Of a stretch of DNA of 64,000 nt, positions 1-46,158 are shown in pieces. The notes beneath the pieces were generated by a model, which ran no database searches, was not told the DNA's origin, and saw nothing but the letters and a program-made list of their open reading frames with translations. Numbering within the stretch: position 1 is the first letter of the stretch; every line of letters starts with the position of its first letter. Source of the DNA: Mytilus trossulus (taxonomy: Eukaryota). Both the position numbers and the translations under genes were made by a program. The stretch spans positions 19,096,001-19,160,000 of the forward strand of contig NC_086380.1 in NCBI RefSeq assembly GCF_036588685.1. Reading direction: 5' to 3'.

Positions 1-260
1 TAACAGATGGGTGTGTTTCTAAGCATTCATTTAGACTTGGATTATCTCTTCCATCTTTGCAGCTACAATCATAAACAATGCGTATTGGCGTAGTAGATTA
101 TTCCTTGGCAACAGAATGATGCGGGATATAGTGCACTGGTCGATCGGTAGGAAGTTTTGTTTCCTCAACCTTTTCAATAAAATGTCTTCTCTCCTGCTCC
201 CTTATGATATCTCCATACATTTTCAATAAATCGGGTTTGTTTGCTAAACACCTAATAACG

Positions 261-1385
261 CTACTTGTCCTCCATGTTATGTGGTAGCGGAAGGAAATCT
301 AGTTTCCATGGTAACTTAGCTGTGTACTTTCCATCTTCTAGTATTATAGACTTTTCTCCGTATTCTCGTACAACTTCCGACTGACTTTTAATGGTATCGC
401 TTCCTGAAACCCCCAACGCTTCTAAGTTCCAAAACTTTTCCAAGTCGCAAACAACGGCTCTGTGATCAGTCAAAATATTCAACATTGCTGATTGTTTTGA
501 ACTACTTCCGTTTTTAGTTAGTACGGGTCCCGACAAGAGATAACCTATTTTCGACTTTACTGCGGTCGGTCCATTTCCTCTTATTATTTCGTCTTCAACT
601 ATTGACCAGTAATAGTCTGCACCAATCAATAAAGATATGTTAAACTTGTCTTCTGCGCATATCGGATGTGCGAGTCGTAAACCACGTAAGTATGGCAGTG
701 CTTTGATTTCCTTTTGTGATTTTGTCTGAATAGGAGCGGCAATTTTCGGTACAATTATTACTTCTATTTCTATTCTTTGATTATCAACTGTTTCAATAGC
801 TATGTTTGCTTTATCAAGATGATGAACTTGTCCTTCGTTTCCTCCAAATCCCGATATTTTCAGTGCAATCTTTTCGGTGGATTCAATTTCTAGTTTTCTA
901 GCTAAATCTTCAGTTATGAATGAGTTTTGTGCTCCCTCGTCAAGTAGAATATTTGTCATGATAGATCGATTTTCGGACCAAACTGGAGTTACGGCAGTTT
1001 TCAGTAAAACATCTGTATGTGCAGTAACAGTAGAATGTAAGGATGTGGTTAGCTCCAGTGGCGTTTCCTCTACGGCGGTATGTGCTACGGTCATTTGTGT
1101 ACTATACTGGTTTTCGGTCAAGCTCTTTGGTTCTGTGTTATGTACTTGTACATGTATACTCGTGTGATGTCTCTTTCCGAACTGGCGGCATTTAAATTCA
1201 GACTTATATTCAGCTACTCTATGATTTCCGAAACAGTTAAAACATACCTTTTTTCGCTTCACAATTTCTATTTGTTTCTCAACATCTTTCACGTTTTTGC
1301 ATGTATTTGGATGATGGGATTCTTCACAAAAATAAACATTTTTTACGTGACTGTTTTCCGTTCTTTCCTTTAAATGTTTCGGCAA
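261..1385 (-). pseudogene. BEL/Pao Zn-knuckles plus aspartic protease (DUF1758-like)
   Basis: CFNCFGNH, HHTSIH, LLDEGAQ, LLIGADYYW, GYLLSGP motifs. Confidence 0.85.
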
Positions 1386-2415
1386 TAAACGAAGCGGTCG
1401 GTAAAATTTCTAAATCTTCATTACTTGAACCTGTAGATTGTCCTGCGACCTGTACGCATACTTCCCTCTTTATTGCTGTTCTCAATGATTCGATGTCCCA
1501 GTCGTCGTTTCCGCGGTCTCGGGTTATGTTTTTTCGTACATAGGACGGCAACTTATTGTATATTATAGGCGTAAGAATAACTCCAAATGTACTCTCGTTT
1601 GTTCCTAACGATTCTAATCCGCGTATGCTACACTCAATTCTATCGGAAAAGTTTCTCAAACTGTCTGCGTTTGACCTCGGTGCGGGTAAATCAATTAAAT
1701 TCTGAATATATGCGTTCGTGATTTTGTGGTTCTGACCAAACCTCTCTCTCAGTATTGATACGGCTTGATAGTAATTTGCATTTGTGAGTGGTAAACCGGC
1801 GATACATTGCGCGGCTATTCCCTGAATTTGATTTTGCAAATACGTAAATTTCTGCACGTCTGTTAATGTTTGGTTATCGTGTATTGTTGATTGATACGCA
1901 TCCCAGAAAGGTTGCCAGTTTAACAAATTGCCTTTAAAATATGGTAGATTCAATTTTGGTAGCTTGTGGTAGATGCTAGAATTTGTTGCGCTCATTGACG
2001 ATCTGTATTGCATATCATTATTCTGCATGGGATGTGGAGTTTTACATGTAGATGTGGAGTTGATAAACACAAAATCTGCTGCATTTGGATTTAAGTTCTG
2101 ATTAGAGCTAGTTTCATTTGATTTGTTTTTCTGTTTTGAACTTGATGAATTGCGTACTTTTGTCAAAATTCGTTCTATATCTAAAACATACCGATCTGAT
2201 TCTTCTATCTCTGCTTCCATGTTTTCCTCTGCAATCTCCTCTAAAATTTCATTATCAAGTTCTGAAAGAATATCCCTCTTCTTCTTCAATGTTTCACATA
2301 GGCTTTCTATTTCGTCACGTTGTGTTGTTTCTTTCTCTAATTCCTCTTCAATCTTTGAAATTAATCTCCTTGTTGCTCCTCGATGGCCCACTCGAATGGC
2401 TTTCTTTTTCGTCAT
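1324..2415 (-). pseudogene. BEL/Pao gag (DUF1759) ORF, frameshifted into the downstream ORF
   Basis: 363-aa ORF with coiled coil and DUF1759-like motifs; the first Zn-knuckle is split by a frameshift near 1330. Confidence 0.85.
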
Positions 2416-2418
2416 TAT

Positions 2419-2436
2419 CCTCTGGTCACAGCACCA
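2419..2436 (-). promoter_or_regulatory. Primer binding site (tRNA-His-like)
   Basis: TGGTGCTGTGACCAGAGG directly after the LTR and just before the gag ATG at 2415. Confidence 0.75.
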
Positions 2437-2437
2437 A

Positions 2438-2641
2438 TGTGACGGATGGGTTAACTAAAGTCTAGACAGGCAGTAAAACAACGTCTGGTTCGTTTGATCG
2501 TATAATCTCAACTCAATATAGCAACATGATACATAACAATAGCACAACGTTAACAGAAGATATGATGACGTTAACAATGTTAATGGAAACGGCGTTAAAA
2601 GTAGTTAACGTTAAAGTTAAACTGTCTCTAAATCACCGACA
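2438..2641 (-). repeat. 5' LTR of the BEL/Pao element (204 bp, TG...CA)
   Basis: Minus strand TGTCGGTG...CGTCACA, followed 1 nt later by the PBS; host repeat resumes at 2642. Confidence 0.8.
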
Positions 2642-9509: not shown

Positions 9510-9634
9510 CTAATGGAAAGCATACAACAGTAAGATTATAACACAAGTAGCTATCACACTCGCTAAAATTATTGTGTCTCTTCTTTTCCGTAAGTTTATT
9601 TTTTGCATTAATGTGTTAATGAGAGGAAACCGAT
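9510..9634 (-). CDS. GOSR1: Golgi SNAP receptor complex member 1 (GS28), exon 8 (C-terminal TM anchor)
   Basis: (N)RFPLINTLMQKINLRKRRDTIILASVIATCVIILLLYAFH*; AG acceptor at 9635-9636. Confidence 0.95.
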
Positions 9635-10399
9635 CTGAAATCTAGTTAAGGAACAAAACAGATAACCATAAATATAACTTATAAATAACGTATCAGATTT
9701 ATAAAATTGTAAGATAGTATTTAGTTGCATGCTACAGTTTTCAAATCAAACAAATTCTTCACATTGGTATCTAGTGGATGTTTGGCTTACAGGAAATCTC
9801 CTACTTCTTATTTTCATACTTATCTGTACATTTCTTTAAAATATACTTTTCATACAAACAATCCCGTTTAAATGTAAATTTATCTATTTGAAGTGGAACT
9901 CTGTCATATTTGTTGAAAGCTATACTCAATATTTCAATAAAGGCTTTCTTATTTATCTCCCTATTCCCATTGATTATTACTTCTGGAAATTGAGGTTTGT
10001 ACTCAAATTTTGATCATGGAAAACTGATAACAATATTTATTTAAACTATATGCAAGCCCCATATATATTAATGATTATTAAAAATTTTGCATACAAATCT
10101 GCAGGCCAGACATATGAAAGCCTTGATTTGGTTAACAGCTTCACGAAAATATCTAATGTGAAGACTAAGTTATTTTTAATTGTATACCCTGTAAGCAGCC
10201 TTGGTGATAAACTCAGCATACACATACCTTTGTTCTCCTAAACTAAAGTACTCTTGCAACCACAAGGTCAAGGCTATTTTTGTCTAAATTTTGGGAACCT
10301 TATATTGGATTATAGAAATTTTACAGGCCTGAGTAGGTAGGCCTGCTGTCAAGCAAATATAATTATGTATTCATCTTGTTAATGTTTTAAAAAGGATAC
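9635..10399 (-). other. GOSR1: U12-type (minor spliceosome) GT-AG intron of GOSR1
   Basis: Donor GTATCCTTTT; branch point TTCCTTAAC (9645-9653) about 10 nt before the AG; no long polypyrimidine tract. Confidence 0.9.
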
Positions 10400-10482
10400 T
10401 CGCTAATGAATTCATTTTCTGTGTGATTGTTCCAAGAACTTTTCTCTGTGATTGTAAATTTTCTTTTGTTGCAATTGCTATA
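10400..10482 (-). CDS. GOSR1: GOSR1 exon 7
   Basis: IAIATKENLQSQRKVLGTITQKMNSLA; phases match the flanking exons. Confidence 0.93.
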
Positions 10483-11121
10483 CTGTGAAATAGAAATGAA
10501 AATATATAAAACATTGACAAACAGAACATAGAATTAAATAAGAAACACAAAGAGGACTCTTTTTACTAAAATGAATGTGGGAGGCAAGGAAAGATTTCCT
10601 TATTTCTAAACATTGGTTATGCAAACTTTATTTATACATATTTGACGTATGCAAAATTACTTAAAAAAAGGTATGTTGGTTTGGGGGTATTCAAGGAATC
10701 TTTGTACCCACTCTCATATCTGTTAATGGAATAGTCCAGATAATTTTTTATAACAATATGATCAAATGCAACAATCTTTTAAAGTTGAAATTTATTTTTT
10801 TTGGTGTTCCAACTGACATGTCTAATGAAGTTGTTTTTTGTTTTCCTTTTCTTCCTATTTGTCATTTTGACTGCAGGTCCCTTCACTGCTGATCATTTAT
10901 ATATGGACAGGTTTATCTTTTTGGTGTAGAGCACAAGTGAGTTTGTTTATTTAAATTCATTTTCAACTTTTAGACTAGAGATGATCTAGAGCTTAAATGT
11001 GTATGTTGGTAACACGTGTATTTGTGTAGTTGTTTCACCGACAGATATATGTATAGATTTTATCATACTTTTTTTTATAAAATTTCAATCTGTTTCATCA
11101 AGCTTTTTTATATATGCTTAC

Positions 11122-11151
11122 CTTATTTGGTCATCTATCATTTTTTCTGAA
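11122..11151 (-). CDS. GOSR1: GOSR1 exon 6 (30-nt microexon)
   Basis: SEKMIDDQI; AG/GTAAGC boundaries; keeps the reading frame. Confidence 0.88.
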
Positions 11152-11262
11152 CTGAAATAGAAAAAAAACAGTTGTATCATTTCCAATATAAGAGGAGTGA
11201 AGATATATATAATAAGGGCAAAATAAAAACTTAAAATCAATCTAAAAGTAAACATTAATATG

Positions 11263-11672
11263 ACAAACAAGAATGTTTCCATAGTACATGGATGCCCCAC
11301 TTGTACTATCATTTATATGTTCATTGGACCATGAAATTGGGGCCAAAACTCTAGTTTTGCATTAAAATTTGAAAGATTATATCATGTGTACTAAAAAGTA
11401 AAATCACAAAAATACTGAAAACAGAGGAAAAGTCCATAATCACATGGCAAAATCAAATGACAAAACACATCAAAAACGAATGGTCAAGAATTTTAATATT
11501 CCTGACTTGGTACAGGCATTTTCAATTGTAGAAAAGTTTCAAGTTGATTTAACTTCAACTTCATCAAAAACTACTTTGACCAAAAATTGGACGGACAGAC
11601 AATAAACAGATGAATGAATGGACGCACAGACCAGTTAACGTAATGTCCCTCTTCTGTTGTAGGTGGAGCGTA
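11263..11672 (+). mobile_element. Degenerate HINE-like repeat with a nested fragment
   Basis: ACAAGAATGT...GGATGCCCCACT start, GACG/GACA microsatellite, hairpin-like end; reverse complement of 51652-52080. Confidence 0.5.
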
Positions 11673-12079
11673 AAAATACAGCAACCACAAAACTCTACAC
11701 AGAAATAAAACATGAACCATACCAAAAGCTTTAGGTAATCTCAGGTATTTATGATAAAATGACAAAATCTAAAAACGTGAAATAATGAAATAATGAAAAG
11801 TCAATATGCAGAAAGTTTGGAGTTTTGATAGTGGTAATCAATATGTCACATTTGATCATTAAAATACTAGAATCTGAGAATTTACAAAATGCATCCAAAA
11901 ATAGAATTTTTCTATTGTTTGCAAGAACATTTTAAATTTTAATTTGGAATTACCAATGTATTGAGTAAGAGGTAGCATCACCTAAGTTGGGTCTTTGTAA
12001 AATAAGAGCTTCAGTGAGCTAACACCAAATAGTTCTTATTTTCTTTATGTATCAGAAATTACCAGATAAGTTCATTTAC

Positions 12080-12151
12080 CTCCGTATGTGATCATGTTCT
12101 TTTAAATACATATCTGTTCTTCTATTCAAACCAGAGGAATTTTTATAAGCA
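12080..12151 (-). CDS. GOSR1: GOSR1 exon 5
   Basis: AYKNSSGLNRRTDMYLKEHDHIR; AG/GTAAAT. Confidence 0.93.
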
Positions 12152-12790
12152 CTGAAAATAAAGCAAATATGAAGTATAGTCTAAACATGTTAAAATAGAT
12201 CTCTTATCATTTCTTTACACGTCTATAATGTTAAAATAATCATTCGAAATAAATTTCTTCACAGAAACAGTACAATCAATCCTCACATATAACTACTTGA
12301 TTTCCCTTTTTTTGTAACATTCATTGACCAGATGCTTCATGATACTATAGCTAAAATAGGAACAACCCAGTTCAAAATTTAGCATCAATGGCTTGAAAAT
12401 TACTAATTTGCTTTGCCTATAACTCTTACAGTGTTCATTTTTGCCTAGTGTTTAACATTAAAAAGACATTAATTTTCTGATCCAGGGCCTTTAATAGCTG
12501 ACTATAGGACATTGGCTTTGCTCAATGTTGAAGGCCATACAGTGACCTTTAGATGTTAGTTCTGTATCATTTTGTCTCACTTGGAGAGTTGTCTCATTAG
12601 CAATCATACAACATTTTCTTTTTTATATAAGAAAATATATTTCCAGCCAAATATTAAAATTCCCAAGCAAACAAGACAATCAAGCTAGTTTTAATTCTTT
12701 GGATATTAATATATATCATGTTTCAATTATCCCCAAAGATCTGATATATAAATTTAAAACAAACCCTCTATATACATTGTCCATGTATTA

Positions 12791-15535
12791 TATAACAAAC
12801 CTAATATCTCGTCTGACAGAGCCTAACAAATCTTCTCTTTCCCTTATTGCTGATATATTAGCCTTAGTTTTATGGAACTCATGTGATTTAAAACAAACCT
12901 AATATCTCATCTGACAGAGCCTAACAAATCTTCTCTTTCCCTTATTGCTGATATATTAGCCTTAGTTTTATGAAACTCATGCGATTTAAAACAAACCTAA
13001 TATCTCGTCTGACAGAGCCTAACAAATCTTCTCTTTCCCTTATTGCTGATATATTAGCCTTAGTTTTATGAAACTCATGCGATTTAAAACAAACCTAATA
13101 TCTCGTCTGACAGAGCCTAACAAATCTTCTCTTTCCCTTATTGCTGATATATTAGCCTTAGTTTTATGGAACTCATGTGATTTAAAACAAACCTAATATC
13201 TCATCTGACAGAGCCTAACAAATCTTCTCTTTCCCTTATTGCTGATATATTAGCCTTAGTTTTATGAAACTCATGCGATTTAAAACAAACCTAATATCTC
13301 GTCTGACAGAGCCTAACAAATCTTCTCTTTCCCTTATTGCTGATATGTTAGCCTTAGTTTTATGAAACTCATGCTATTTAAAACAAACCTAATATCTCGT
13401 CTGACAGAGCCTAACAAATCTTCTCTTTCCCTTATTGCTGATATGTTAGCCTTAGTTTTATGAAACTCATGCGATTTAAAACAAACCTAATATCTCGTCT
13501 GACAGAGCCTAACAAATCTTCTCTTTCCCTTATTGCTGATATGTTAGCCTTAGTTTTATGAAACTCATGCGATTTAAAACAAACCTAATATCTCGTCTGA
13601 CAGAGCCTAACAAATCTTCTCTTTCCCTTATTGCTGATATGTTAGCCTTAGTTTTATGAAACTCATGCGATTTAAAACAAACCTAATATCTCGTCTGACA
13701 GAGCCTAACAAATCTTCTCTTTCCCTTATTGCTGATATGTTAGCCTTAGTTTTATGGAACTCATGTGAGTTATAACAAACCTAATATCTCGTCTGACAGA
13801 GCCTAACAAATCTTCTCTTTCCCTTATTGCTGATATATTAGCCTTAGTTTTATGGAACTCATGTGAGTTATAACAAACCTAATATCTCGTCTGACAGAGC
13901 CTAACAAATCTTCTCTTTCCCTTATTGCTGATATATTAGCCTTAGTTTTATGGAACTCATGTGAGTTATAACAAACCTAATATCTCGTCTGACAGAGCCT
14001 AACAAATCTTCTCTTTCCCTTATTGCTGATATATTAGCCTTAGTTTTATGGAACTCATGTGAGTTATAACAAACCTAATATCTCGTCTGACAGAGCCTAA
14101 CAAATCTTCTCTTTCCCTTATTGCTGATATATTAGCCTTAGTTTTATGGAACTCATGTGAGTTATAACAAACCTAATATCTCGTCTGACAGAGCCTAACA
14201 AATCTTCTCTTTCCCTTATTGCTGATATATTAGCCTTAGTTTTATGGAACTCATGTGAGTTATAACAAACCTAATATCTCGTCTGACAGAGCCTAACAAA
14301 TCTTCTCTTTCCCTTATTGCTGATATATTAGCCTTAGTTTTATGAAACTCATGCGATTTAAAACAAACCTAATATCTCGTCTGACAGAGCCTAACAAATC
14401 TTCTCTTTCCCTTATTGCTGATATATTAGCCTTAGTTTTATGAAACTCATGCGATTTAAAACAAACCTAATATCTCGTCTGACAGAGCCTAACAAATCTT
14501 CTCTTTCCCTTATTGCTGATATGTTAGCCTTAGTTTTATGAAACTCATGCGATTTAAAACAAACCTAATATCTCGTCTGACAGAGCCTAACAAATCTTCT
14601 CTTTCCCTTATTGCTGATATATTAGCCTTAGTTTTATGAAACTCATGCGATTTAAAACAAACCTAATATCTCGTCTGACAGAGCCTAACAAATCTTCTCT
14701 TTCCCTTATTGCTGATATGTTAGCCTTAGTTTTATGAAACTCGTGCGATTTAAAACAAACCTAATATCTCGTCTGACAGAGCCTAACAAATCTTCTCTTT
14801 CCCTTATTGCTGATATATTAGCCTTAGTTTTATGAAACTCATGCGATTTAAAACAAACCTAATATCTCGTCTGACAGAGCCTAACAAATCTTCTCTTTCC
14901 CTTATTGCTGATATATTAGCCTTAGTTTTATGAAACTCATGCGATTTAAAACAAACCTAATATCTCGTCTGACAGAGCCTAACAAATCTTCTCTTTCCCT
15001 TATTGCTGATATATTAGCCTTAGTTTTATGAAACTCATGCAATTTAAAACAAACCTAATATCTCGTCTGACAGAGCCTAACAAATCTTCTCTTTCCCTTA
15101 TTGCTGATATATTAGCCTTAGTTTTATGGAACTCATGAGAGTTATAACAAACCTAATATCTCGTCTGACAGAGCCTAACAAATCTTCTCTTTCCCTTATT
15201 GCTGATATATTAGCCTTAGTTTTATGGAACTCATGAGAGTTATAACAAACCTAATATCTCGTCTGACAGAGCCTAACAAATCTTCTCTTTCCCTTATTGC
15301 TGATATATTAGCCTTAGTTTTATGGAACTCATGAGAGTTATAACAAACCTAATATCTCGTCTGACAGAGCCTAACAAATCTTCTCTTTCCCTTATTGCTG
15401 ATATATTAGCCTTAGTTTTATGGAACTCATGAGAGTTATATCAAACCTAATATCTCGTCTGACAGAGCCTAACAAATCTTCTCTTTCCCTTATTGCTGAT
15501 ATGTTAGCCTTAGTTTTATGGAACTCATGAGAGTA
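12791..15535. repeat. 98-bp tandem array, 28 copies, derived from the 3' end of GOSR1 exon 4 plus its donor site
   Basis: Exact period of 98 (12801 + 27x98 = 15447); each unit encodes HEFHKTKANISAIREREDLLGSVRRDI followed by GTTTG. Confidence 0.97.
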
Positions 15536-15646
15536 ATCCTGTAGGATATCTCTGTGTCTCTGTAAAGTATGGAGTAGAGCAGCACTAGGGGAACTCATAC
15601 TGATATTCTGTGTGTAGTCAGACATTCTATCATTCACATCTTGTAA
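15447..15646 (-). CDS. GOSR1: GOSR1 exon 4
   Basis: LQDVNDRMSDY...LHTLQRHRDILQDYSHEFHKTKANI...RRDI; 200 nt; AG/GTTTGA. Confidence 0.93.
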
Positions 15647-15929
15647 CTGAAAAACAAAATTACTATTATAAATTTAAGAAGATGCCATATGATTGCCAAT
15701 GAGACAACTCTCCACCAGAGAACAAATGACAATTGTGACAATTATGTGCTACCCTATGGATTCAACAATGAGCAAAACAGCTATAAAAGATCTTCAATGA
15801 TGTTATTGTTTTTCTATTGTTTGGAATGTGCTTAAATAATGTGAAGCAGGATTCCTTCCAAATCCAGAGCACCTTAGATCTACTACAGATTTTGGTGGTT
15901 GCACATTCTTTAGCTTTCTATGTGTTAAT

Positions 15930-16375
15930 TAGTATACTGTTTGTCTCTATTTGATTGTTTTACATTTTTGATTGTAAGTATACTGTTTGTCTTATTTGAT
16001 TGTTTTACATTTTTGATTGTAAGTATACTGTTTGTCTTATTTGATTGTTTTACATTTTTGATTGTTAGTATACTGTTTGTCTTATTTGATTGTTTTACAT
16101 TTTTGATTGTCAGTTTACTGTTTGTCTTATTTGATAGTTTTACATTTTTTATTGTCAGTTTACTGTTTGTCTTATTTGATTGTTTTACATTTTTTATTGT
16201 CAGTTTACTGTTTGTCTTATTTGATTGTTTTACATTTTTTATTGTTAGTTTACTGTTTGTCTTATTTGATTGTTTTACATTTTTTATTGTCAGTTTACTG
16301 TTTGTCTTATTTGATTGTTTTACATTTTTGATTGTTAGTATACTGTTTGTCTTTATTTGATTGTTTTACATTTTT
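15930..16375. repeat. 45-bp minisatellite, about 10 copies, in GOSR1 intron 3
   Basis: Unit AGT(A/T)TACTGTTTGTCTTATTTGATTGTTTTACATTTTT(G/T)ATTGT(A/T/C). Confidence 0.92.
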
Positions 16376-16905
16376 TGTCATTGATGTTTGAATATTCCTT
16401 TGTTATTTTTTGTCTCTCTTGTCTTGCTTTGATATGAAATGGTTGGAAAAATGTACATTAAGAATTGGAAATATTTTTAACTGTGCTAATTCCCTCAAAA
16501 GTTTCCTCTAAACTCGCTTGCTTGAATTGGATTTTGGAACCAGTCAAATTTCTCCAAATGTCAGGGTTGATCTAGGGTTTATGGGAAGGTGGGCATATTT
16601 TCTATAATGATATAGATTGTGCAAGGAATAAGGATTTCTAAATATTTATTACAGTTTAATGCAAAACTTTGGTATTTTCCCCCCTCTTCATCCACCCTCA
16701 CTGAATTTTCCCACTGATCATGCTGAATTTTGAACTTTGTCTTTGGATAACATGATAAAGCTAACTCAATAAGATATTCAATAGTCCATTTAATGTTCAA
16801 TTTACAGAATTTTGCCTCAATCGCAAGTCTATCGAATTATTTTTAGATAAACAGACTTCTTACTATAGTTCCCACCTAGATCAACCACAAGTACTTGTAG
16901 GGGGC

Positions 16906-17256
16906 ACTTACCTTTGATAACAGCTGTTCAATCTCCATGGCCATTGTATCAAACATGTGCTCACTACTAAGATTTATTAATAAGGGGAGATAACTACTCA
17001 CCTTTGATAACAGCTGTTCAATCTCCATAGCCATTGTATCAAACATGTGCTCACTACTAGATTTATTAATAAGGGGAGATAACTACTCACCTTTGATAAC
17101 AGCTGTTCAATCTCCATGGCCATTGTATCAAACATGTGCTCACTACTAGATTTATTAATAAGGGGAGATAACTACTCACCTTTGATAACAGCTGTTCAAT
17201 CTCCATGGCCATTGTATCAAACATGTGCTCACTACTAGATTTATTAATAAGGGGAG
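16906..17256. repeat. 89-bp tandem array, 4 copies, derived from GOSR1 exon 3 plus its donor site
   Basis: Exon-end copies at 17180, 17091, 17002 and 16912; donors GTGAGT x3 and GTAAGT. Confidence 0.95.
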
Positions 17257-17264
17257 CTGACTCA
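17180..17264 (-). CDS. GOSR1: GOSR1 exon 3
   Basis: ESAPLINKSSSEHMFDTMAMEIEQLLSK; only this copy has a TTTTCAG acceptor. Confidence 0.92.
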
Positions 17265-18589
17265 CTGAAAATATATCAGTAAAAAAAATTTATATAAATC
17301 ATATTAATATTTACATTTATATATATATCTGAAAATTTCATATTGTAACAATTTTTCATAATGTTGAAATTAAAAATTAACTTTGAATACGATTGAAACT
17401 AAATAATCAACAAAATTTTAGTTTTAATTGTAAAGATATTAACATTCATAACATTCATCATGTTTAGCAATTAATACTTTTTGCAGAGAAAAAAAAAGAA
17501 ACACTAATGTACAATGTATTATATTGAATAAAAATTCCAGAAGTTGGAATGTGTCTTTTCATTTTGTAGTATAAAGATCACCATATTCTAGGACAAATTC
17601 ACATGAATTTCAGACAATGCTCACATAATCATGGAATTTCTATACCTATATAAGTGTACATACAATGTATATGTATATATATGTATATGATTACACAATG
17701 AAAGCAAGAAAAATCTTGTATACTTCCATCATACAGGCATTCATGACTCAAATTTGCTATACTGAAATGCAAGGTCTTACAACAAGCATGACAAGCAAAT
17801 ACATGTACCAAGGTATAATAACTTTAGTTTGGTATTATCATTCCATAAATGATTTTCCATAAATGATTTAGCCTGACATGAAGCTCTTAAAATGCACTTC
17901 ATTAGATTCATAAGCTATGATTGTATAATGTGTAACATATAATCATATAATAAATCCATAAAGACAGCAAATAAATATAAGACACAGATGAAGGGAGGAG
18001 TTAAAATTTTCTTTACCAGGAAAGTCAAAGGTCAAGTACATGTACGTGTATAATCATGACAATGCATCAGTGTAATCAAAATTGAAAGTCAATTCCCACA
18101 CCTTAGGCCAACACTACAGTGAACCCACACTTTTCTCTCAATTCTGTTAAGCAATCTTAATCATTAAAACTGTATTTTAATTTTTAAAAATCTATCATAT
18201 GCGTATAACATGTATAACAGAGTCAGCATTGTTCTCTTTTGAAGTCTGAATTTTAAAAATATGACCATCACCACTGTCAGAGAAATACTGAAGCTTTTAA
18301 TTCCAAGCTGAGGAAAGTAAATGAATGGACTACATCATATATGAATGAGTAAGCAGTTTCTCTAATTTTTAGCAATTGTGGTTCACTTGATCATGTTGAT
18401 CTCAATTCTTCATTGATCAAAAAGATTCATGATTTTTTTAAAAGTAATTGAAAATGAAATTGAGGACAACTAACAAACATGTATCATCTAAAAGCCATTA
18501 CTACGGCATTAGGAGAAACAGATGCAAAAGTGACCTGACTTCTGCATTCTATCTTATAATTGAAACATAAACTGTCTCTTGAGGATTAA

Positions 18590-19470
18590 CCCTTTCAACG
18601 CTACACAAAAAAATAGAAAAATGGCTGCTGCTGCTGCATTTTTTTTTAGTTCATTCATTAGAACAGTATTTTCCTTTTCAGACTGCTGTATCTTTTTTAT
18701 TATATGAGATACAGAGAAAGTTATTGCATGAAAAATGCTCAGGAGAGCATGAACTGTAATGATAGGCAATTATTTTACTAAAATTTTTATCAGGTTACCT
18801 GCGTTTTCAGGTAATTAACAGGTAAAAGGTGTAATTTATTACATTTGTGTTGAATTTTGAATAAAAACTACTTTTAGTCTTCATTTATTTTGTTGTTTTA
18901 TCTGCCATATTGTAAAGAAGACACCAATTGCCCGATTCAGTAGCGTATTGTACCATACATAACGTTTTATTTAATCGTGGCACAAATAAATAGCTCCGTG
19001 CTAAAAAATTTCAGTCAACCTGCGTTTTCCCCCCTTTTTCTACGTCTCGTATTGATCGATCAAATCATATTTCCCATACGAATTTAATGTAATAAACACA
19101 TTGAGATAACAAAAAAACTTTTAACTAATCCTTGTTGTTAGTTTCGCCAAGGAAATGCTGAAATTTTTCCATATTTACAGCTTCGTTTCCGATTTCCACC
19201 ATTTGCATTTGTCAAAATATTTGTTTTTATTTTCCTTCTATTTTCCTTCTACTGCATGATTTTACTATAAAAATTGTCGGGATTTCAAGCGCAAATGAGA
19301 CCTTGCATATCCTAGATTCAAACGATGAAAAATTAGAGAGAACCCGAATGAAAACCGAATGGTTTAAGAGTCCTTATGAAAAATCCTTTTTCATCGCAGC
19401 ATATGCCGCGAAAAGCAGTGGCGAACGGTGTACGTCATCGCGGCATATGTCGTGTATAGCGTTGAAAGGG
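18590..19470. mobile_element. piggyBac-like non-autonomous element (MITE)
   Basis: TTAA|CCCTTTCAACGCTA ... TAGCGTTGAAAGGG|TTAA. Confidence 0.85.
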
Positions 19471-20003
19471 TTAATATTGTATCATGTTTGCTCAGACTGT
19501 AGTAGAATCTATATCATGAATGTATATATATCATAGGTATGAATGTCATGAAAGTTGAATGAGTTGCCCATTATGTAAAATAGTATGAAGTTACCTTTTA
19601 GTTAAAGTGTGTTCCTCATTTGGTTTGCTAAATGATCATTACAAAATAAACCAATTAATCGTATGTACATTGCAATTATCATTTGTTAAAGTGAGGAGGG
19701 AAATATTAGAATGTCAGATTATGAAAATTTTACTTTGTATATTTAACCAGATTAATAGATTGAAGAAAAACAAGATAGAAATACCCTATTTGTATAATAA
19801 AAAAAAGAGTTGTTGTTTGTGCACTTTTATAGCACATGTTAGTTTATTCACCAAATCTAACAAAACAAACATTTGTAAGCATTTTGGTTAATATTGCCAG
19901 GATACATATGACTATAACATGTGTAGATATATATATATACATTTGTACATGTAAAACAAAATTATATATCTACATGTATAATCAAATATTACTTGATACA
20001 TAC

Positions 20004-20106
20004 TTTCCATAATCAATATGTGATGAATAATTTGTTCCTAGTTTACTGAAGGATACCAGCTTCAAATCAATCTCATTCTCTAACTGTCTGGCTTGTTTAC
20101 GTAAAT
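20004..20106 (-). CDS. GOSR1: GOSR1 exon 2
   Basis: (D)LRKQARQLENEIDLKLVSFSKLGTNYSSHIDYG; AG/GTATGT. Confidence 0.95.
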
Positions 20107-20687
20107 CTGAAATAAATATCTTTTCAGTTAAAAATCAATATTACAGTAAGTCATGAACTTTATAATATATTGTACCATGGAAAAATATCATAGGAAGACA
20201 TGTGAATTCAGCTTAAACTAAACAAGTTTTATAGTATGTACAGTAAAGTAGTCAATACAATTTTGTTTATCAAATCACCAATGCCATGTATACATTGTAC
20301 ATTTCTTTATTTTAACTCACATCAAAATCAGCTGATCAAAATGTTTTGCAAACTTAAGATCTTTAGACATGTTAGATATCAAAAAAGTTGTCTGATTTGT
20401 TATTTTACCAGTTTTATTCTATCCCTGATTAAGAAACTTTGACTTTAAATTTAAAGTTGGCAGTCACTTATATGCCAGGATACTAAAATAAATTTTTAAA
20501 GTTCTTTATATGGTTTCAGTTCTTATACATCATTGTGCATTCTTAACTTTCAAAGATTTAAATTTTTAGCATGTTTAGAGTTGCTGATGAAAGTCAGTCA
20601 AGAAAAAATCCCTGAAGGTATGTAGTGTTATATCTATTTTTTTAAGAGAATAATGATCATACATGTAGTGTGGATTCCTATAATCAT

Positions 20688-21890
20688 CAGTGTTCTAGCT
20701 AGGCCGTTTTCAGAGGGCGCGGCGCCCGCCCTTTTCCGAGTGGCGCCCTGTGCCCTTTTTACAGTTTCCAGGGCGCCCTGCCTTTTTTGAAGATCGATTG
20801 TATATTAATTTGTTCGTATTGATATGATACGCTAATTTCTAAATTTTACCTGGGGAAAATTTTATGACTTTGTTTATGACCCCAAGCTAATCAATAGTGT
20901 CATAATCTGTTGTTAAAGGTAATCCGCTTATTGGATGGGTCATTAATGATCATCAACATTAATTCGTTCAAATAGAATCGGTCAGTCTTTGAAGAAATGT
21001 GCATACAACAACTTGGGCACAATTTGCGATGTTTACCGTAGTTTCATGGAGGAAACGTAATGAAAGAAAGTTAGAAAACCATAATAAACTCGTTGAAGAC
21101 ATTGTTTTACTTGTTTTCTGTAAAATAAACAGAAAATGCAGACGTATTAGTCATTGACTGCCTTCATTTTTGTTACGAAAATAACAAAATCGACCGCCAT
21201 ATTGTGATCATATTTACGTACTGTTTATAATCCTCCAAAGAAGGAGCACACCTGAATAAAGAAAGATAACTCAATCTGATTTTTTTCCTAGCATTGAGTA
21301 ACCCATTTACATATTCTAAAATATGTCTCCATACTTCTTGCTTAAGAATATATATGTTTAGGTATTTATTTTGAGTTATGGGAAAAGTTAAAGAGGGTCT
21401 TAGTAGCAGTGTTGGTAGGGTGCCTTGGTCATCTTTTTCTGTATTCTTTATTTTTGATACTATTTTTCACTGTTGCTTTATATCCTAAAATTGTGAATTT
21501 ACTGAGCACAGCTGTTTTGTGCTGTATTGCCATTAAGCACATCAGGGGTAGAAAGGTGAAACTAGTAAAATGTGGTAGACCATAGAAACAGTATGAAACA
21601 GGTCTCCTTTCAAAACATACTGCATATAAAGTTCAACTGTGCCAAGCAATAATCAAAAAACTTGTGTGACAAGCTGCTTGACAAGTTTTTCAGCCTTAAA
21701 AGTAGAAAGATAGAGTTTTATATGGGCTAATGATGTTGTTCTTGTATAACCTGTGATTCAACGAATAAACACAAATGTTTGATTAACATCTTTTATTAAA
21801 ATATGCCCTTTTCATATTATCATATCGCGCGTTAAACGCCCTTTTTCAGGATTGGCACCCTGTCCTTTTGAAAACCTAGCTGGAACACTG
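20688..21890. mobile_element. Non-autonomous TIR element (hAT-like CAG termini), 5-bp flanking repeat ATCAT
   Basis: CAGTGTTCTAGCTAGG ... CCTAGCTGGAACACTG with subterminal GCGCCC motifs. Confidence 0.8.
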
Positions 21891-21983
21891 ATCATGATCA
21901 TAATAATGTGTAATGCATACATATACATGTACATGTGCTTTCCCTGTCAATACAAGATGTTTTACAGGTCGTGCATGTACTAT

Positions 21984-22464
21984 CAGAGTTCGCGAAAACC
22001 GTCGGTCCTGTCGGTCCTGACCGCCAAAATGAGGCTCGGACCAGTATGTTGTCCACTTGTGACGGTCCCGATGACCGATGCAAAAACGGCCGTTGCAGTG
22101 CCTATGTCGGCACGTTTTTTACATCGGTTATCAGATGGACCGTTTTTTCATTGGTCATTAGATGTACCTGCCGGTAATTTCCGGTACTGGTTTCCGATTT
22201 TTATTATAAACAAACCAACTGACCAAGGCGGCGAGCCACATGTGGCCTATCAAATTTGTTCAAGGAGCTGTTCCTGGCAAATGATCGGCGGTGGAACCTT
22301 ATATAATAAATACAGTTAATTTCCGTTGAAATAAGTTATTGATTTTATTTCAGGATAAAATTGACAGATTTTGTAGGACCAGCAAAAAATTTGTAGGACC
22401 GGCATATAATCTTGCTTTGTCAGTCCTATGACTGACGGATCAAAAAAAGTTTTCGCGAACTCTG
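21984..22464. mobile_element. MITE, 16-bp TIR, 6-bp TSD TACTAT
   Basis: TACTAT|CAGAGTTCGCGAAAAC ... GTTTTCGCGAACTCTG|TACTAT. Confidence 0.85.
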
Positions 22465-23814
22465 TACTATCATGACTATTCAGTAGGCAAATGTTTTTTG
22501 GGTTTTTTTTTAAGACCTTCCCAGCAATGTAATTTTGTTCTGCTCAGTTCTTACATGTACATGCATCTAATCAACAGAGAATCTATGCTTATAAATATAC
22601 AATGTACATGATATATGCATGTTAAATTTTATGTCAAAAGCAGCAGATGTGCATGATGACAAACGTTAGAATAATACTTAACATTTAATTAGAGTTTTTT
22701 TCATCCGTCAAGTCATGGGACTGACAAAGTGAGATTATATGTTAGTCCTACAAAATCATTCAATTTTATCATTTGAACTGGTGACAGAACATGCTGAAAA
22801 GTTCTGTGTGCATAATTAACATGTCATGAGTTTTGTTTAAGTCATCCCTATTGTTTTGCCAACTTGCAGGTCAGGTTTTCGTTCTCACTCGTATTGCTTC
22901 ATATATATTTGGCTTCATCTGAAGGTTCCACCACAAAAGTTTGCCAGGGACAGCTTCATGAACAATTTAGAAAGGCCACATGTACAAATGTAAGCTGGCC
23001 TAACAAAAGTTTGTCAGGAATGTCTTCAAGACCAATTTTGATAGAGTACATGTACATTTAGGAACTGCAAATTGTGGCTGATTTTCCATTAGTCATTGGG
23101 ATAGTCAGAGATTGCCCTGATGTTCAACGGCAGAAACTTGCATACATGAAGAGATATTTAAGAAAAATTAACAGATTGATGACCAATTTATATAATTCCA
23201 AGCCAAAAGACAGTCGGCCACCCCTAGAAGCAACGAAGTAGCGCATCTACATTGGATGGGCAAATATCCACTTTTTGATATGGGACAAGCTCTGCGGTCC
23301 CAGGGCCCAGCTTGTCTGGCAAAACAGCCATTGGACGTCAGAGTAATCTGGGACTATCATTGACACAGCCCAAAGCGATCAGAACTCTGGCCCTGTTTAC
23401 TGGAAAAAGTTCTCTATGCATTTTCAAAATTTGAATATTCTTTCAACTCTGTTCAGACAGCAGTCCTAAAGTAAACAAATTACTTAATTAGAGTGACCCC
23501 TACTTATAATCAGAACAACACTATATTTATGTAATGAATTCGTGCGATATGCCAATGTGTCAATTAGATTGTAAGTTCATACTGTTTTCTTAATAATAAG
23601 GTTCCATATGGTTTGGTTTAAATTATTAGGATTTATTTTTTAGCAGTCATGATAGGATGTAAACAACCAAACAAAGGGCACCGTGGAAAGGCCATTTGAA
23701 ATATTTCAGAAAAAATCATGACATCCTTATGTTCATTGAATGAATAATGTAAATTATGTATAGTGCTCGTCACAAATTATGCCATGGCACGATGAACTAC
23801 GCAAAATAATGCAC

Positions 23815-23842
23815 CTTCCCATAGGTTTCCCATATCTGCCAT
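23815..23842 (-). CDS. GOSR1: GOSR1 exon 1 (coding part)
   Basis: MADMGNLWE(D) joins exon 2 to give the conserved WEDLRKQAR; total CDS 726 nt = 241 aa. Confidence 0.85.
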
Positions 23843-25496: not shown

Positions 25497-25858
25497 GTTT
25501 TATATCACGTGATTAGAAAGAAAATGAAGTGTTGTTACTCTCTCAACAAAAATATGGATTTCGGTTAGTTATACAGGAGATTTTGGAGTAAGATTTCAAC
25601 AACTGTAAATATTATACTTTTTGAACTTATTGTCTAAATTTCGGAGATCTTGAACCCATATTAGAAGTTTTTGATAACAACGAAACTATTATTTTCACTG
25701 AGACCTGTCCTGTATACCCTGGGGGATAAACAGTGTATATATTGAAAACTGTTCATTAAACATTGAATGAAAGTGGACTTTGGACTATAGTAAAATCAGC
25801 TGTTTTATAGTAAATTTGACCTATTCACCTATAAGGACAACCAATCATATCAAAAAGA

Positions 25859-26875
25859 ATGTCGATGAGCGATACGTCGAGGTTGATTAAAGAGAGCCGA
25901 AGAATAGTTGACGCTTCCAATGATGTAAATCTGAACTCCGGCACATTGCTTAACATGATTTTGGAAATAGTTACGGGTATCGACTCTACAATGAGACGAA
26001 TGGAAACAAGTATGGAGAAGCGCCTTGATGATTTGAAACAAGATTTCTTAACGGTGTCAGCTAGGGTTAGAACATTAGAAAACCAGGCGAGCGATTTCAA
26101 CAAAAAGCTGTCAGACTGCGAGACTAGCTGCCAAGGTGTTAGCAATCTTTTCGATCAGGTATCTGGACAAGTAAAAACTAACAGACGTAATATAAACAAT
26201 CATGATACGAGAATTAAGAAACTTGAAGACAACACCATCGTCCGACCGGGTGTTCCATCAGTCATCAATTCAAAGGAAATTGAGTCCTTAAAGTCAGCCA
26301 TTCTTGACTTGCAATGCAGGTCAATGAAAAACAATCTGATCTTTACGGGATTGCATAGAGTTCCGGGTGAAGATACGGAAGAGCTTTTGCGATCATTTCT
26401 ATACGATGAGCTGAGGATCGACTACAGGATCGAATTCGGCAATGTCCATCGATTCCGAACAAAGGGGGACAACAGAAGAGCACCGATAGTTGCAAGATTC
26501 CTATATCACCGTGATCTTGAATATGTTTTAGCAAATGCTACCAGACTAAAAGGTAGACCATACGGAATACGGGAGCAATTTCCTCATGAAATTGAACAAA
26601 AGCGGAAGGAACTGTATCCGGTATTAAAACAGGCCAAACAGCAAAATAGACAAGCCTCTCTTGTGCGTGATAGGCTATACATAGACAACCAGCTCTACAT
26701 TCCTAACACGGTACTAGAGGACACTAGAACGGAGCATACTGGCTCTTCATCAACAAACCATGACACGAGCCCAAAAGGTTCTTATTCTAGTGATACCCCT
26801 CCTAGCAAAAGACAGCGACAGGGACCGTCTCCTGGCCCACCGCACACAGATGATTCACCAAATTCTGGCAGATAG
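25859..26875 (+). CDS. LINE ORF1 (coiled coil plus L1-like RRM/CTD)
   Basis: 338 aa; DLQCRSMKNNLIFTG, VHRF, PIVARF, IREQFP motifs. Confidence 0.9.
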   Translation: MSMSDTSRLIKESRRIVDASNDVNLNSGTLLNMILEIVTGIDSTMRRMETSMEKRLDDLKQDFLTVSARVRTLENQASDFNKKLSDCETSCQGVSNLFDQVSGQVKTNRRNINNHDTRIKKLEDNTIVRPGVPSVINSKEIESLKSAILDLQCRSMKNNLIFTGLHRVPGEDTEELLRSFLYDELRIDYRIEFGNVHRFRTKGDNRRAPIVARFLYHRDLEYVLANATRLKGRPYGIREQFPHEIEQKRKELYPVLKQAKQQNRQASLVRDRLYIDNQLYIPNTVLEDTRTEHTGSSSTNHDTSPKGSYSSDTPPSKRQRQGPSPGPPHTDDSPNSGR

Positions 26876-26879
26876 GGGA

Positions 26880-29800
26880 ATGGTGCAAGAGGACAACCTC
26901 AAAAGAAATCGAAAAATTATAAATATTTGTTTCTTAAATGTTTGTGGACTTAAGAAAAGACTATTGTCTCCCGATTTCATTGACATTTTGCTTGAACATG
27001 ATATCTGTATTTTTGTTGAAACGATGTTAACTGATTTAGATAATTTAAACTTACCAGACGATTATATTTATGTCACAAAAAATAGAAAAAAATTTAAAAA
27101 AGCATCAGGTGGAATAGTTGTTATTTATAGAAAGAGTTTAGAAAAAGAGTTGAATTTCTATAATACTGAGAGTCAATTTGTTTTATGGTTTAAACTTTCG
27201 AAATCAATTTTGTCACTTAATTCAGATGTAATTTTTGGTTGTGTTTATGTACCACCTGAAAACTCTAAGTATTCTACTATAGAAGCTTTTGAAGAATTGG
27301 AAAATGAATTGAATATCCTTACAAACACTGAAAATTTTTATATTGCCCTAGTTGGCGATTTTAACTCAAAAACTGGGTCTTTACCCGATTATATTATACC
27401 TGATGAGTCAGTTGTTAGTATGTTTGATTTAGATTGTGATGCTGATATATTAGATTATTTGTATGATTATGAGAATCTGACTCGAAACAAAATCACCTTA
27501 CAAAGAGTGTCTCAGTGTACATGTCGACCTAATAGGTATGGTCATAGACTGTTAGAGTTGTGCAGAAAAAATAATTTATATATTGCAAATTCAAGAGTTG
27601 GATCAGATAAAGATATTGGGGAGAAAACATGTAACGATTCAAGTGTTGTTGATTATTTAATTATTTCATCAATGCTCTTCCCTTTGATTGTTTATTTTGA
27701 AATTGCTGACTTCATACCGTTATATTCTGATTGTCATTCTTTTATAAATTTTAGACTTCAGGCCACATTTAGTAAATCAGATTCAATTGTTATCAACAAT
27801 AGAAATGATAAAACTTTTGTCAGGTGGAAAAGTGAACAGAAATCTGAATACGTTGATCGAATTCACAATGATCCCAAAGGTATTTTGACCACTGTTATGA
27901 ATAAACTGGACAAATTGTCCGTAAATAATGATGCAACTCAAAATGATATAAACAATATAGTTTTAGATATCAGCAAAAATTTTAAAGATGCGGCAGCAGA
28001 AACGTTTGGGAAAGTAAATAAACATAAACATTTTTACAAACATGAAAATTCAAAACCTTGGTTTAATAGAAAATGCTCGATGAGTAGAAACAAATTTCAT
28101 AAAGCTCGAAAGAGATATAGTTTTTTGAAAAATGCTGAAAACAGAAGTAAAATGAGACAAGCTAGTAAAGAACATAAAGTAACATTAAATAAATCTTTTG
28201 CAAACTATCAACAGAGAGCTGCTGATGAGTTGCGTAACATCTCTAAAAAGGATACAAAAGCTCTATGGAAAATCCTTAATAATCTAAATGATAGTAAAAA
28301 AAAAGATAACAATGACGATATATCTCTAAAAGCATTGTATGATCATTTTAAAATATTAAATGAAACTGTTGAGACAGAAAATGATTTCGAACAAGATTTG
28401 GAATTTGATACTCTACCAGACGATGTTGAGTTATTTTTAAACTGTCCAGTAACAGAAGATGAAATTAAAAAAGTTGTTTCAAACTTAAAAAATGGCAAAG
28501 CTTCAGGTAGTGATGAAATTTTAAATGAGTATATAAAGAATACAATTGACGATTTAATGCCAATTTATGTTAAGCTATTCAATTTGATTTTAGATACTGG
28601 AATTGTTCCAGACAGTTGGTCTAATGGAATCATGATTACTATATTTAAAAATAAAGGATCAAGATCTGATCCCGAAATGTACAGAGGAATCACTTTGAAT
28701 TCATGCTTTAGTAAAACTTTTTCTGCCATGTTGAATTACAGGTTAAATAATTATGCAGATCACGTAGACCTGATTTCAAAGGCACAAGCAGGTTTTCGTA
28801 GAGGATTCTCTACTGTTGACAATATATTTGTATTGTATTCTTTAATTACTATATATTTTTCATTTGGTAAGAAGCTATTTTGCACTTTTATAGACTTTAA
28901 AAGCGCTTTTGACACTGTATGGAGGTCAGGATTGTGGCAAAAAATGCAAAAATCAAACATTAAAGGTAAATTATTTAATGTGATCTATAATATGTATCAA
29001 AATATAAAAACATGTGTCAAGAAAGGAAATGAATTTTCCGAATTTTTTATATCTCATACAGGAGTAAAACAAGGTGAAAATCTATCACCTTTTTTATTTT
29101 CTTTGTTTCTAAATGATTTAGAAAGTTATTTTGTGGAAAATAATATAGAAAGTCTAACTAATATTTCAAAGCTGTGCTTGGAATCATTAGAAATGTATGT
29201 TAAATTGTTTATTATACTGTACGCAGATGATACTGCGCTATTGTCTGAAAGTGCAGAAGGATTACAAAAAACCCTTGTATGTTTTGAAGAATATTGTAAA
29301 AAATGGAAGCTTAAGATTAACACAAGCAAAACCAAAGCAGTGATTTTTAGTAAAAGGAAAGTAAAAAGAAATCAGAATTTTATGATATATGGTGAAAAAA
29401 TTGAAATAGTTGATTCCTACTGCTACCTTGGTGTACTTTTCAATTACAACGGTAGCTTTTGTACAGCACGAAAAAGACTTCTTGTTCAAGCACAGAAGTC
29501 TTTGTATGCTCTATACCGAAAAATAAAAAATATATGTATTCCCGTCGATTTGCAGCTAAAACTTTTTGACTCATTGGTTAGTCCTGTTTTATTATATGCT
29601 TCAGAGGTATGGGGATTTGAAAATAAAGAAAGCATTGAGAAAATACACCTTCAATTTTGCAAAAACATTTTGAAATTAAGAAGCAGTACACCAAATTATA
29701 TGGTGTATGGGGAACTCGGAAGATTCCCTTTGGAAACCATTATTAAACGTAAAATGGTGTTGTTTTGGAATAACTTGGTATCGGAAAATAACAAGTTATC

Positions 29801-30395
29801 TTCCATTATGTATAAATTAATGCTCAAATTACATTTTCAAAACCCCACAAAATTTAAATGGATTACGTACGTTAAATCCATATTTGATGAAAATGGAATT
29901 AGTTTTATTTGGCAAAATCAACTTCCATTGGATAAACTGGGATTAAAGAACATTATTTCACAAAAACTGAATGATCAATTCATCCAACATTGGTTTTCAC
30001 AAATGAATAACTCTTCAAGAGGTGCATTTTATTCATTTTATAAAGAGGAATTTCGTTTGGAAACCTATTTGATAAAGTTGAAGCTGTGTGACAGGATTTA
30101 TATGGCAAAACTCAGATGTTCAAATTTAAAAATTCCTGTAGAAACGGGAAGATGGTCCGGAATTCCAAAAAATGCACGAATTTGTCATCTTTGTGGAAAT
30201 GGAATAGGGGATGAATTTCATTATCTTTTTAAATGTCAAAAACAGGAAATAAAACTGCTTAGAAATAAATATATTCCACAATATTATACTGCAAATCCAA
30301 CGGAGTACAAATTGAAACAGCTTTTAACATTTTGTCATGTAGAACTTTACAAAAACTTAGCAATATTTTTAAAAATTCTTACACGATACTTGTGA
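26880..30395 (+). CDS. LINE ORF2: AP endonuclease, reverse transcriptase and C-terminal Zn-knuckle (ORF is open from 26760)
   Basis: NVCGL, VET, GDFN, VDY, SDCH; QAGFR, DFKSAFD, QGENLSP, YADD; ETGRW...CHLC...DEFHYLFKC. Confidence 0.95.
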   Translation: MVQEDNLKRNRKIINICFLNVCGLKKRLLSPDFIDILLEHDICIFVETMLTDLDNLNLPDDYIYVTKNRKKFKKASGGIVVIYRKSLEKELNFYNTESQFVLWFKLSKSILSLNSDVIFGCVYVPPENSKYSTIEAFEELENELNILTNTENFYIALVGDFNSKTGSLPDYIIPDESVVSMFDLDCDADILDYLYDYENLTRNKITLQRVSQCTCRPNRYGHRLLELCRKNNLYIANSRVGSDKDIGEKTCNDSSVVDYLIISSMLFPLIVYFEIADFIPLYSDCHSFINFRLQATFSKSDSIVINNRNDKTFVRWKSEQKSEYVDRIHNDPKGILTTVMNKLDKLSVNNDATQNDINNIVLDISKNFKDAAAETFGKVNKHKHFYKHENSKPWFNRKCSMSRNKFHKARKRYSFLKNAENRSKMRQASKEHKVTLNKSFANYQQRAADELRNISKKDTKALWKILNNLNDSKKKDNNDDISLKALYDHFKILNETVETENDFEQDLEFDTLPDDVELFLNCPVTEDEIKKVVSNLKNGKASGSDEILNEYIKNTIDDLMPIYVKLFNLILDTGIVPDSWSNGIMITIFKNKGSRSDPEMYRGITLNSCFSKTFSAMLNYRLNNYADHVDLISKAQAGFRRGFSTVDNIFVLYSLITIYFSFGKKLFCTFIDFKSAFDTVWRSGLWQKMQKSNIKGKLFNVIYNMYQNIKTCVKKGNEFSEFFISHTGVKQGENLSPFLFSLFLNDLESYFVENNIESLTNISKLCLESLEMYVKLFIILYADDTALLSESAEGLQKTLVCFEEYCKKWKLKINTSKTKAVIFSKRKVKRNQNFMIYGEKIEIVDSYCYLGVLFNYNGSFCTARKRLLVQAQKSLYALYRKIKNICIPVDLQLKLFDSLVSPVLLYASEVWGFENKESIEKIHLQFCKNILKLRSSTPNYMVYGELGRFPLETIIKRKMVLFWNNLVSENNKLSSIMYKLMLKLHFQNPTKFKWITYVKSIFDENGISFIWQNQLPLDKLGLKNIISQKLNDQFIQHWFSQMNNSSRGAFYSFYKEEFRLETYLIKLKLCDRIYMAKLRCSNLKIPVETGRWSGIPKNARICHLCGNGIGDEFHYLFKCQKQEIKLLRNKYIPQYYTANPTEYKLKQLLTFCHVELYKNLAIFLKILTRYL

Positions 30396-30587
30396 TTTAT
30401 GTTGGTTTTTAGTTGAAAGTTATGGTAGTTTGTAAATTGACATTTGCTATATTCTCTCATGTATGTAGCATTATTATGTTTAGTGTGAATGTATTGAGTA
30501 TAAACATGTGTATACGTGTATATATGATGTCCTCTTGTACACCTATGTGTCTGAGGTTTATTAATAAAGTATTGTCTATTGTCTATT

Positions 30588-30904
30588 GACATATCTTGCA
30601 CTCAATGGCCGGCAATGTTGTCTAAATTTTTTTGTCAGTGACAAAAAAAAAAAAAAAAAAAGAGTCACTGAGGCCAGGGCTGGACTACGTGCATATGTTA
30701 TCCCGTAAAAAATGTTGTGCAAAAACTTAAGGATTTTGCATAAATATAGTTATTACATATTGTTGATATAAAGATAGAGTGCTTGTTTTCTCAAACACTT
30801 CGAATTCAACACGGTCGTCCGCGTAAAGCATTCTCGATCATACAAAAATACCCCCCAAAATCGGGACCATTTGCCAAAATTATAAATTAATATTTAAGAG
30901 GCTG
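30588..30904 (+). repeat. Right copy of the direct repeat flanking the LINE
   Basis: Starts immediately after the microsatellite tail. Confidence 0.95.
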
Positions 30905-44049: not shown

Positions 44050-44340
44050 CTTTTATCATTTCACTGAAGTGTATTAGACCACTGTTTCCCTGCAATAAAT
44101 AACCTTTGAAAATGATATACTCGCGATGAACGGTTTATTGGTGAATTTAGAGTTATTCCCCTTCAATATAGCCAAGAATTTAAAAAAGACGTTCTTTTAC
44201 CAGGAAACGACTTTAAAATTATACCAAACTAGGAAATACATAGTTTGAGACCAGTATTGTAAAATAGAAGGAATTTTTTTGTATATACTTTGTAATCTAT
44301 TCAATATTTGTAAAACTTATAAACGCTGACGTGTACTTAC

Positions 44341-46145: not shown

Positions 46146-46158
46146 TTAATACAGTAAC

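Follow-up and report, generated by a model that had tools for sequence, protein, structure and literature searches.

The end of an exon of GOSR1, a Golgi-trafficking gene, is tandemly repeated together with its 5' splice site in the analysed window (the whole 64-kb stretch of DNA, position 1 being its first letter). Tandem Repeats Finder (TRF) places this repeat, array A, at 16906-17256 with a period of 89, 3.9 copies, and 98% matches. Read on the minus strand, the acceptor TTTTCAG is followed by an 85-nt exon (17264-17180) and then by segments of 89, 89, and 90 nt, every one of which ends in AAG|GT with the same exon end; an acceptor is present at copy 1 only, and the donors start at 17179, 17090, and 17001 (all GTGAGT) and at 16911 (GTAAGT). 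The extra unit consists of GTGAGTAGTTAT (12 non-exon bases) and the last 77 of the 85 exon bases, with one synonymous C>T in copy 3 and one inserted T in copy 4. The coordinates, the four copies, the periods (89/89/90), the single acceptor, and the donor sequences given in the first-pass annotation are exact by TRF and by the minus-strand reading, while its division of the regular unit into 8 bases plus 81 exon bases gives way to the one above. Array A is confirmed as a genuine repeat of the GOSR1 exon end and its donor. Our favoured explanation, which we hold to be probable, is that it is a neutral or nearly neutral minisatellite of the "mirage" type, tolerated in a locally unstable stretch in which the first donor wins.

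Table 1 Features of the GOSR1 locus in the window
Feature	Positions	Strand	Remark
Copy 1 of array A, authentic GOSR1 exon, 85 nt	17180..17264	-	Product via first donors identical to P0127
Copy 2 of array A, 89 nt	17091..17179	-	Authentic donor GTGAGT (17179), 6-nt filler, and the exon's last 77 nt
Copy 3 of array A, 89 nt	17002..17090	-	Pseudo-donor 17090; sole unit able to form an 81-nt in-frame pseudo-exon (AG 17083)
Copy 4 of array A, 90 nt	16912..17001	-	Pseudo-donor 17001; frame broken by 1-nt insertion
Distal donor GTAAGT, then unique intron	16906..16911	-	
GOSR1 coding exons 23842-23815, 20106-20004, (19627-19595), 17264-17180, 15646-15447, 12151-12080, 11151-11122, 10482-10400, 9634-9510	9510..23842	-	PF12352 V-SNARE_C
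Next GOSR1 exon, 200 nt	15447..15646	-	Its last 88 nt plus 10 intron bases are the founder of array B
Alternative GOSR1 micro-exon, 33 nt	19595..19627	-	252-aa long isoform
Array B, 98 bp x 27.9	12794..15529	-	Exon end plus donor
Array C, 45 bp x 9.8, 96% matches	15931..16375	.	Mid-intron, without a splice site

Joining eight GOSR1 exons through the first donor at each array yields a clean 241-aa product with exactly the sequence of the annotated record P0127, which is labelled by source as GOSR1-like from Mytilus galloprovincialis and M. trossulus and suggests that the window comes from a Mytilus mussel. Because the micro-exon belongs to the long isoform, the repeated exon, previously called exon 3, takes third place in the 241-aa isoform and fourth place in the 252-aa one. 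Among the matches listed, only the 241- and 252-aa clusters show 100% identity to the next GOSR1 exon. The 333-aa record P0128 was considered as a product of the duplicated exon and rejected; it is instead a fusion with an upstream gene model of the VKOR family. The same boundaries of the repeated exon are found in three of the homologous loci, two of which (L022 and L018) end in AAG|GTAA and the third (L023) in AAA|GTAT. The distal intron of array A begins GTAAGTGCCCCC, and its GTAAGT, to judge from the sequence, is probably the intron start that preceded the duplication; the homologous exons at L022 and L018 likewise end in AAG|GTAA. As a separate observation, a scallop isoform (P0008) has an insert similar to the micro-exon, which appears to be conserved among bivalves.

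Within array A, splicing from the first donor (17179) alone restores the annotated 241-aa protein. With donor 17090 the frame shifts and ends, after 105 codons, at a TGA near the start of the next exon, and use of donor 17001 or 16911 leads to TGA inside the array after 102 codons, which bears out the earlier statement that read-through to a distal donor hits TGA. Over the 11 positions of the U1 consensus, each of the four donors makes eight Watson-Crick pairs and one wobble with U1, and the distal GTAAGT, described as perfect in the first-pass annotation, thus matches no better than the proximal donors. A donor-masking RNA structure was not found in array A (fold z = -0.99; 14 of 100 shuffles as stable). 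In contigs of RNA run X21, the bin over copy 1 has a depth of 20.3 and the two bins with most of copies 2-4 have no cover; this run carries another organism label than the best DNA sample and is not counted as evidence.

The internal AG had also been thought able, in principle, to yield an in-frame duplication of 27 codons. One formal route does exist: donor 17179 would be joined to the AG at 17083 with removal of an intron of 97 nt, and 81 nt would then lead to donor 17001, giving 268 aa; in the last unit the internal-AG route gives 82 nt and then a stop. The acceptor on which this route depends is very weak, however: on a small, home-made matrix derived from 17 of the window's acceptors it scores -6.3, compared with -2.9 to 11.7 (median 9.0, each left out in turn) for these real acceptors, and 87 of the 107 background AGs of the upstream intron outscore it. 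The exon motif, moreover, occurs twice in none of the 128 proteins compared and once in 91 of them; the protein search listed the best 120 of 660 matches. Tandem duplication of the whole exon, which would provide every copy with an acceptor and an intron of its own and could give cassette or mutually exclusive exons, was rejected because copies 2-4 have no acceptor and the internal AG falls below all 17 real ones.

Depth among sequencing samples was taken from assembled contigs of four of the 24 runs listed, and summed contig depth is no copy number. Relative to flanking depth, array A amounts to about 4.9 (X1), 2.5 (X6), and 7.3 (X8) unit-equivalents, and the array B bin to about 21.6 (X1), 2.0 (X6), and 0.7 (X8), none of which are true copy numbers; X1 is possibly the source of the window itself. 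The depth pattern hints at genuine arrays, with a wider spread of array A than of array B, and does not prove copy numbers. The contigs of X8 have no cover at 16467-16788, which is not counted as evidence. The X6 contig over 16345-16935 starts exactly 30 letters from intron position +7, with 24 letters on the exon side (below bridging), and its start would fit a branch after GTAAGT, at either a repeat junction or a second haplotype.

Among the contigs displayed (four runs) there is no exon-exon RNA joint. None of these contigs spans array A, and the listed joints do not involve the array, which speaks for an assembly artefact with the repeat absent from the animal; of note, matches to high-copy transposons crowded the tables of contig joints, loose ends, and pieces, and 32 joints lie beyond those listed. 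We nevertheless find an artefact hardly credible, given that the copies differ by a substitution and an insertion, that their junction is found nowhere else in GOSR1, and that X1 has several unit-equivalents of flanking depth over the array (not a copy number as such, and the window may itself derive from X1). It is also very unlikely, in our estimate, that the array is functional, be it that copy number tunes GOSR1 output by unproductive splicing or that a 268-aa isoform with a duplicated helix is made. The four donors are strong and intact, their distal use leads to early stops, one route stays in frame, and depth hints at a multi-copy unit under the second organism label (X8) too; yet young copies are expected to keep intact donors, the very weak internal acceptor overlaps a U1 site, the insertion in copy 4 shifts the frame, and no such isoform occurs among the 128 proteins compared.

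In array B two types of unit are interleaved. The second type has the junction GGTTTGTTTTAAAT (16 nt), a stretch also present some 35 nt into the intron downstream, which suggests that it may have been templated from there by local template switching; the first donor of this array, GTTTGA, matches U1 at 5 of 11 positions, compared with 6 of 11 for the other copies checked. Array C sits between arrays A and B and is an internal control for local repeat instability. Arrays A and B look independent, as had been proposed: their units differ, they belong to separate repeat families, and because, by the depth hint, array A is spread more broadly over the runs than array B, separate origins would be expected.

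With head-to-tail units at the period, copy number, and identity given above, array A is a minisatellite, and its unit spans a real exon-intron boundary, with four AAG|GT donors and the exon confirmed by the identity to P0127. By layout and sequence it is to be classed with the known boundary minisatellites of the mirage or F7-intron-7 type. Lancelet mirages (in the globins BflGb6 and BflGb9 and in Adh3) are boundary duplications at either exon end, with 3-6 copies and units of up to 160 bp; they vary between haplotypes and leave splicing undisturbed, and the mechanism that generates them was termed unclear (PMC3087553). Like array A, they are few-copy tandem duplications of an exon-intron boundary, which in BflGb9 is the 3' exon boundary (PMC3087553). 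They differ from it in that they are found in a cephalochordate rather than a mollusc and that haplotype variation and RT-PCR were shown for them, whereas array A is known from DNA sequence and its unit combines 77 of 85 exon bases with only about 6-12 others (PMC3087553). In lancelet PGBD5, repeats of 60 and 108 bp abut the 5' splice sites of exons 3 and 4, and a pseudo-exon annotated there was later rejected (PMC3902484). As in GOSR1, two neighbouring exons each have their own tandem repeat, so the two-neighbour pattern is already in print; the PGBD5 copies are imperfect, whereas array A is 98% identical and the neighbouring array B has 28 copies (PMC3902484).

The human F7 intron 7 contains a 37-bp VNTR whose first unit lies across the boundary and of whose donors only the most upstream is used; the same holds for LMNB2 (100 bp) and PDGF (81 bp), whereas in CBS and 6-16 there is some use of the closest pseudo-sites (PMC1557585). 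In F7 minigenes, downstream sites of up to consensus value 91 did not compete, but perfect ones took 70-90% of splicing (PMC1557585). F7 and array A share a first unit across the exon/intron boundary and reiterated donors; the F7 unit, however, is mostly intron (4 + 33) and that of array A mostly exon, and the F7 pseudo-sites equal the true site whereas the last donor of array A differs at +3 (PMC1557585). Boundary-spanning tandem repeats have also been treated as raw material for new introns and exon change (PMC2812944, PMC4974935). The 97-nt intron route in array A would be an intron gain by an internal repeat, although the acceptor needed is very weak. In the open-licence literature, a scope outside which most subscription journals fall, including the original Adh3 mirage paper, we found neither a report of a mirage in a bivalve nor, PMC10078293 included, a test of whether repeat ends are enriched at donors across a genome.

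We propose that array A began as a short tandem duplication of the exon's last 77 nt plus the first intron bases, at a junction that has the look of microhomology-guided repair or slippage, the exon start being donor-like and the 6-nt filler resembling the exon end. Specifically, at the acceptor and exon start, AG|TGAGTCAGCTCCCC, the final base of the acceptor and the first bases of the exon (AG|TGAGT) together read GTGAGT, a donor-like start found in 1 of 17 exon starts of the window, and slippage or end joining between donor look-alikes would yield an AAG GTGAGT junction. In the observed junction AGTTAT takes the place of the CAG of the exon, and a second GTTATC lies at the exon end, ten bases further upstream; the match of the filler to the exon end has a P of about 0.054 in shuffled exons. 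Alternatively, GTAAGT plus filler may have come first and the change at +3 later. Tandem duplications joined by polymerase theta in C. elegans are described as having microhomology and flank-templated insertions (PMC8654963). On these sequence features the junction mechanism is weakly supported. Two other origins were considered and rejected: a back-spliced (circular) RNA, as the exact donor-to-acceptor junction is absent, with an extra G, AGTTAT for CAG, and the first 8 exon bases not cleanly repeated; and a template switch to a dispersed repeat, as the junction word AGTTATCTCCC has a single further occurrence in the window (58242), which is too little.

Unequal exchange or slippage would then have brought the array to four copies, as the near-identical copies and the known behaviour of minisatellites would suggest. 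By sequence logic, with a lone acceptor and a full U1 site after copy 1, the normal exon is still defined and copies 2-4 are intronic. Judging by the F7 and lancelet experiments, the first donor would be used, and transcripts leaking to distal donors would meet early stops and be degraded. Boundary arrays would persist at donors because they are the exon-containing duplications that spare the protein; at GOSR1 a single patch of 4.5 kb has produced three separate arrays.

The first-pass annotation took the two neighbouring exons as a sign of a recurrent mechanism that amplifies exon/donor junctions. Such arrays do recur, as lancelet mirages and the two neighbouring PGBD5 exons attest, but targeting of the junction is not borne out, the splice-free array C lying between arrays A and B. 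Under random placement, the probability that two of three collapsed arrays cover a donor is 0.0012 in the window (16 donors) and 0.0087 in the GOSR1 span, and the probability that three collapsed arrays fall within 1163 bp is 0.0011; this placement test is post hoc, in that the window was picked for array A, the three arrays were selected by eye out of 29 TRF rows, and not all donors are on the list. Because array C has no splice site and the arrays are clustered at P = 0.0011, local instability is needed in any case, and a local duplication hotspot with a survival filter explains the picture as well as junction targeting does. Such a filter is to be expected on general grounds: a duplication within a conserved exon would alter the protein, whereas one of the exon end plus at least 6 intron bases would spare it if the first donor is used.

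Against our favoured explanation of a tolerated, nearly neutral minisatellite stand the overlap with donors (P = 0.0012/0.0087) and the unit ends 6-12 nt past the donor, a placement that survival filtering on its own would not require; by analogy, the perfect downstream sites of F7 suggest that strong distal donors may not always be silent. The donor overlap and the unit ends would instead suit a mutational process that targets exon/donor junctions, for example if donor recognition during germline transcription were coupled to breaks or to stalling of the polymerase, with duplications ending past the 5' splice site. We regard such a process as doubtful. Two neighbouring exons are hit by units of 89 and 98 bp, with the founding units of both arrays ending 6-12 nt past GT, the donor overlap has P = 0.001-0.009 under random placement, in PGBD5 the repeats of exons 3 and 4 lie directly against 5' splice sites (PMC3902484), and the generating mechanism was termed unclear in the 2010 lancelet paper (PMC3087553). 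However, these probabilities are post hoc, with eye-picked arrays and some donors missing from the list; array C contains no splice site; the geometry of F7 is the opposite, with 4 exon and 33 intron bases (PMC1557585); mirages arise at acceptors too (PMC3087553); and the other 14 located donors of the window have no array. Likewise, in 65 spliced-looking loci among 80 GOSR1-family loci of other eukaryotes, none of 145 exon ends overlaps a tandem repeat with a period of at least 20, a weak result as these loci are short, partly redundant metagenome contigs that break at repeats; an alignment scan found no Mytilus orthologue by identity among the 80 loci, and a degenerate exon pattern gave no matches in metagenome contigs.

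As it stands, array A alone is one more mirage and of little significance. The GOSR1 locus is of interest as a test case, with two young, near-identical arrays at consecutive donors, a splice-free control array, and apparent differences among Mytilus samples. With it one can ask whether a mollusc obeys the first-donor rule when a distal donor is just as strong, and the share of 70-90% taken by perfect downstream sites in F7 is the main reason why donor use in GOSR1 deserves a direct test. The locus also lends itself to asking whether mirages owe their existence to targeted mutation or to selective survival, a question left open by the work on lancelets. We give little credence to the broader idea that tandem duplications in mussels, and in other mirage-rich animals, end past 5' splice sites above the intronic background, with the lesions arising at transcription-coupled donor recognition. 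If it were true, GOSR1, with two consecutive exons hit on separate occasions, would directly record mutagenesis coupled to splicing, and such duplications would be a steady source of new introns and exons.

Several other features of the window were recorded. In a GOSR1 intron, an element of ~890 bp at 18585-19475 with 23-nt terminal inverted repeats (96%) and very high depth in three DNA runs is a high-copy MITE-like insertion. Upstream of GOSR1, the VKOR-family gene (44534-40400, minus strand, 3 exons, PF07884) has its first two exons joined to GOSR1 in the public gene model P0128, a fusion that is probably an annotation artefact or read-through. Its first intron has a tRNA-like, SINE-looking sequence twice in tandem at 43570-44050; ARAGORN made no tRNA call there and found no tRNA genes in the 64-kb window. 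A nearly identical pair of glutathione S-transferase (GST) genes (PF00043) lies at 44830-49861 and 58568-61632, both on the plus strand, the last two exons of the second having been located, and at 45002-45278 two segments (34 and 44 nt) are duplicated just 3' of the first GST donor with the exon excluded. Between the GST copies, a gene at 55144-56850 (plus strand) encodes a small cysteine-rich peptide with a signal-like start and 8 cysteines in its middle exon; the peptide has no Pfam match at E 0.01, is secreted-looking, and is possibly an antimicrobial peptide. An open frame at 1-2450 (minus strand), at the window start, and an element at 25500-30600 (plus strand), upstream of GOSR1, are by eye what we take to be LTR-retrotransposon-like and LINE-like, respectively.
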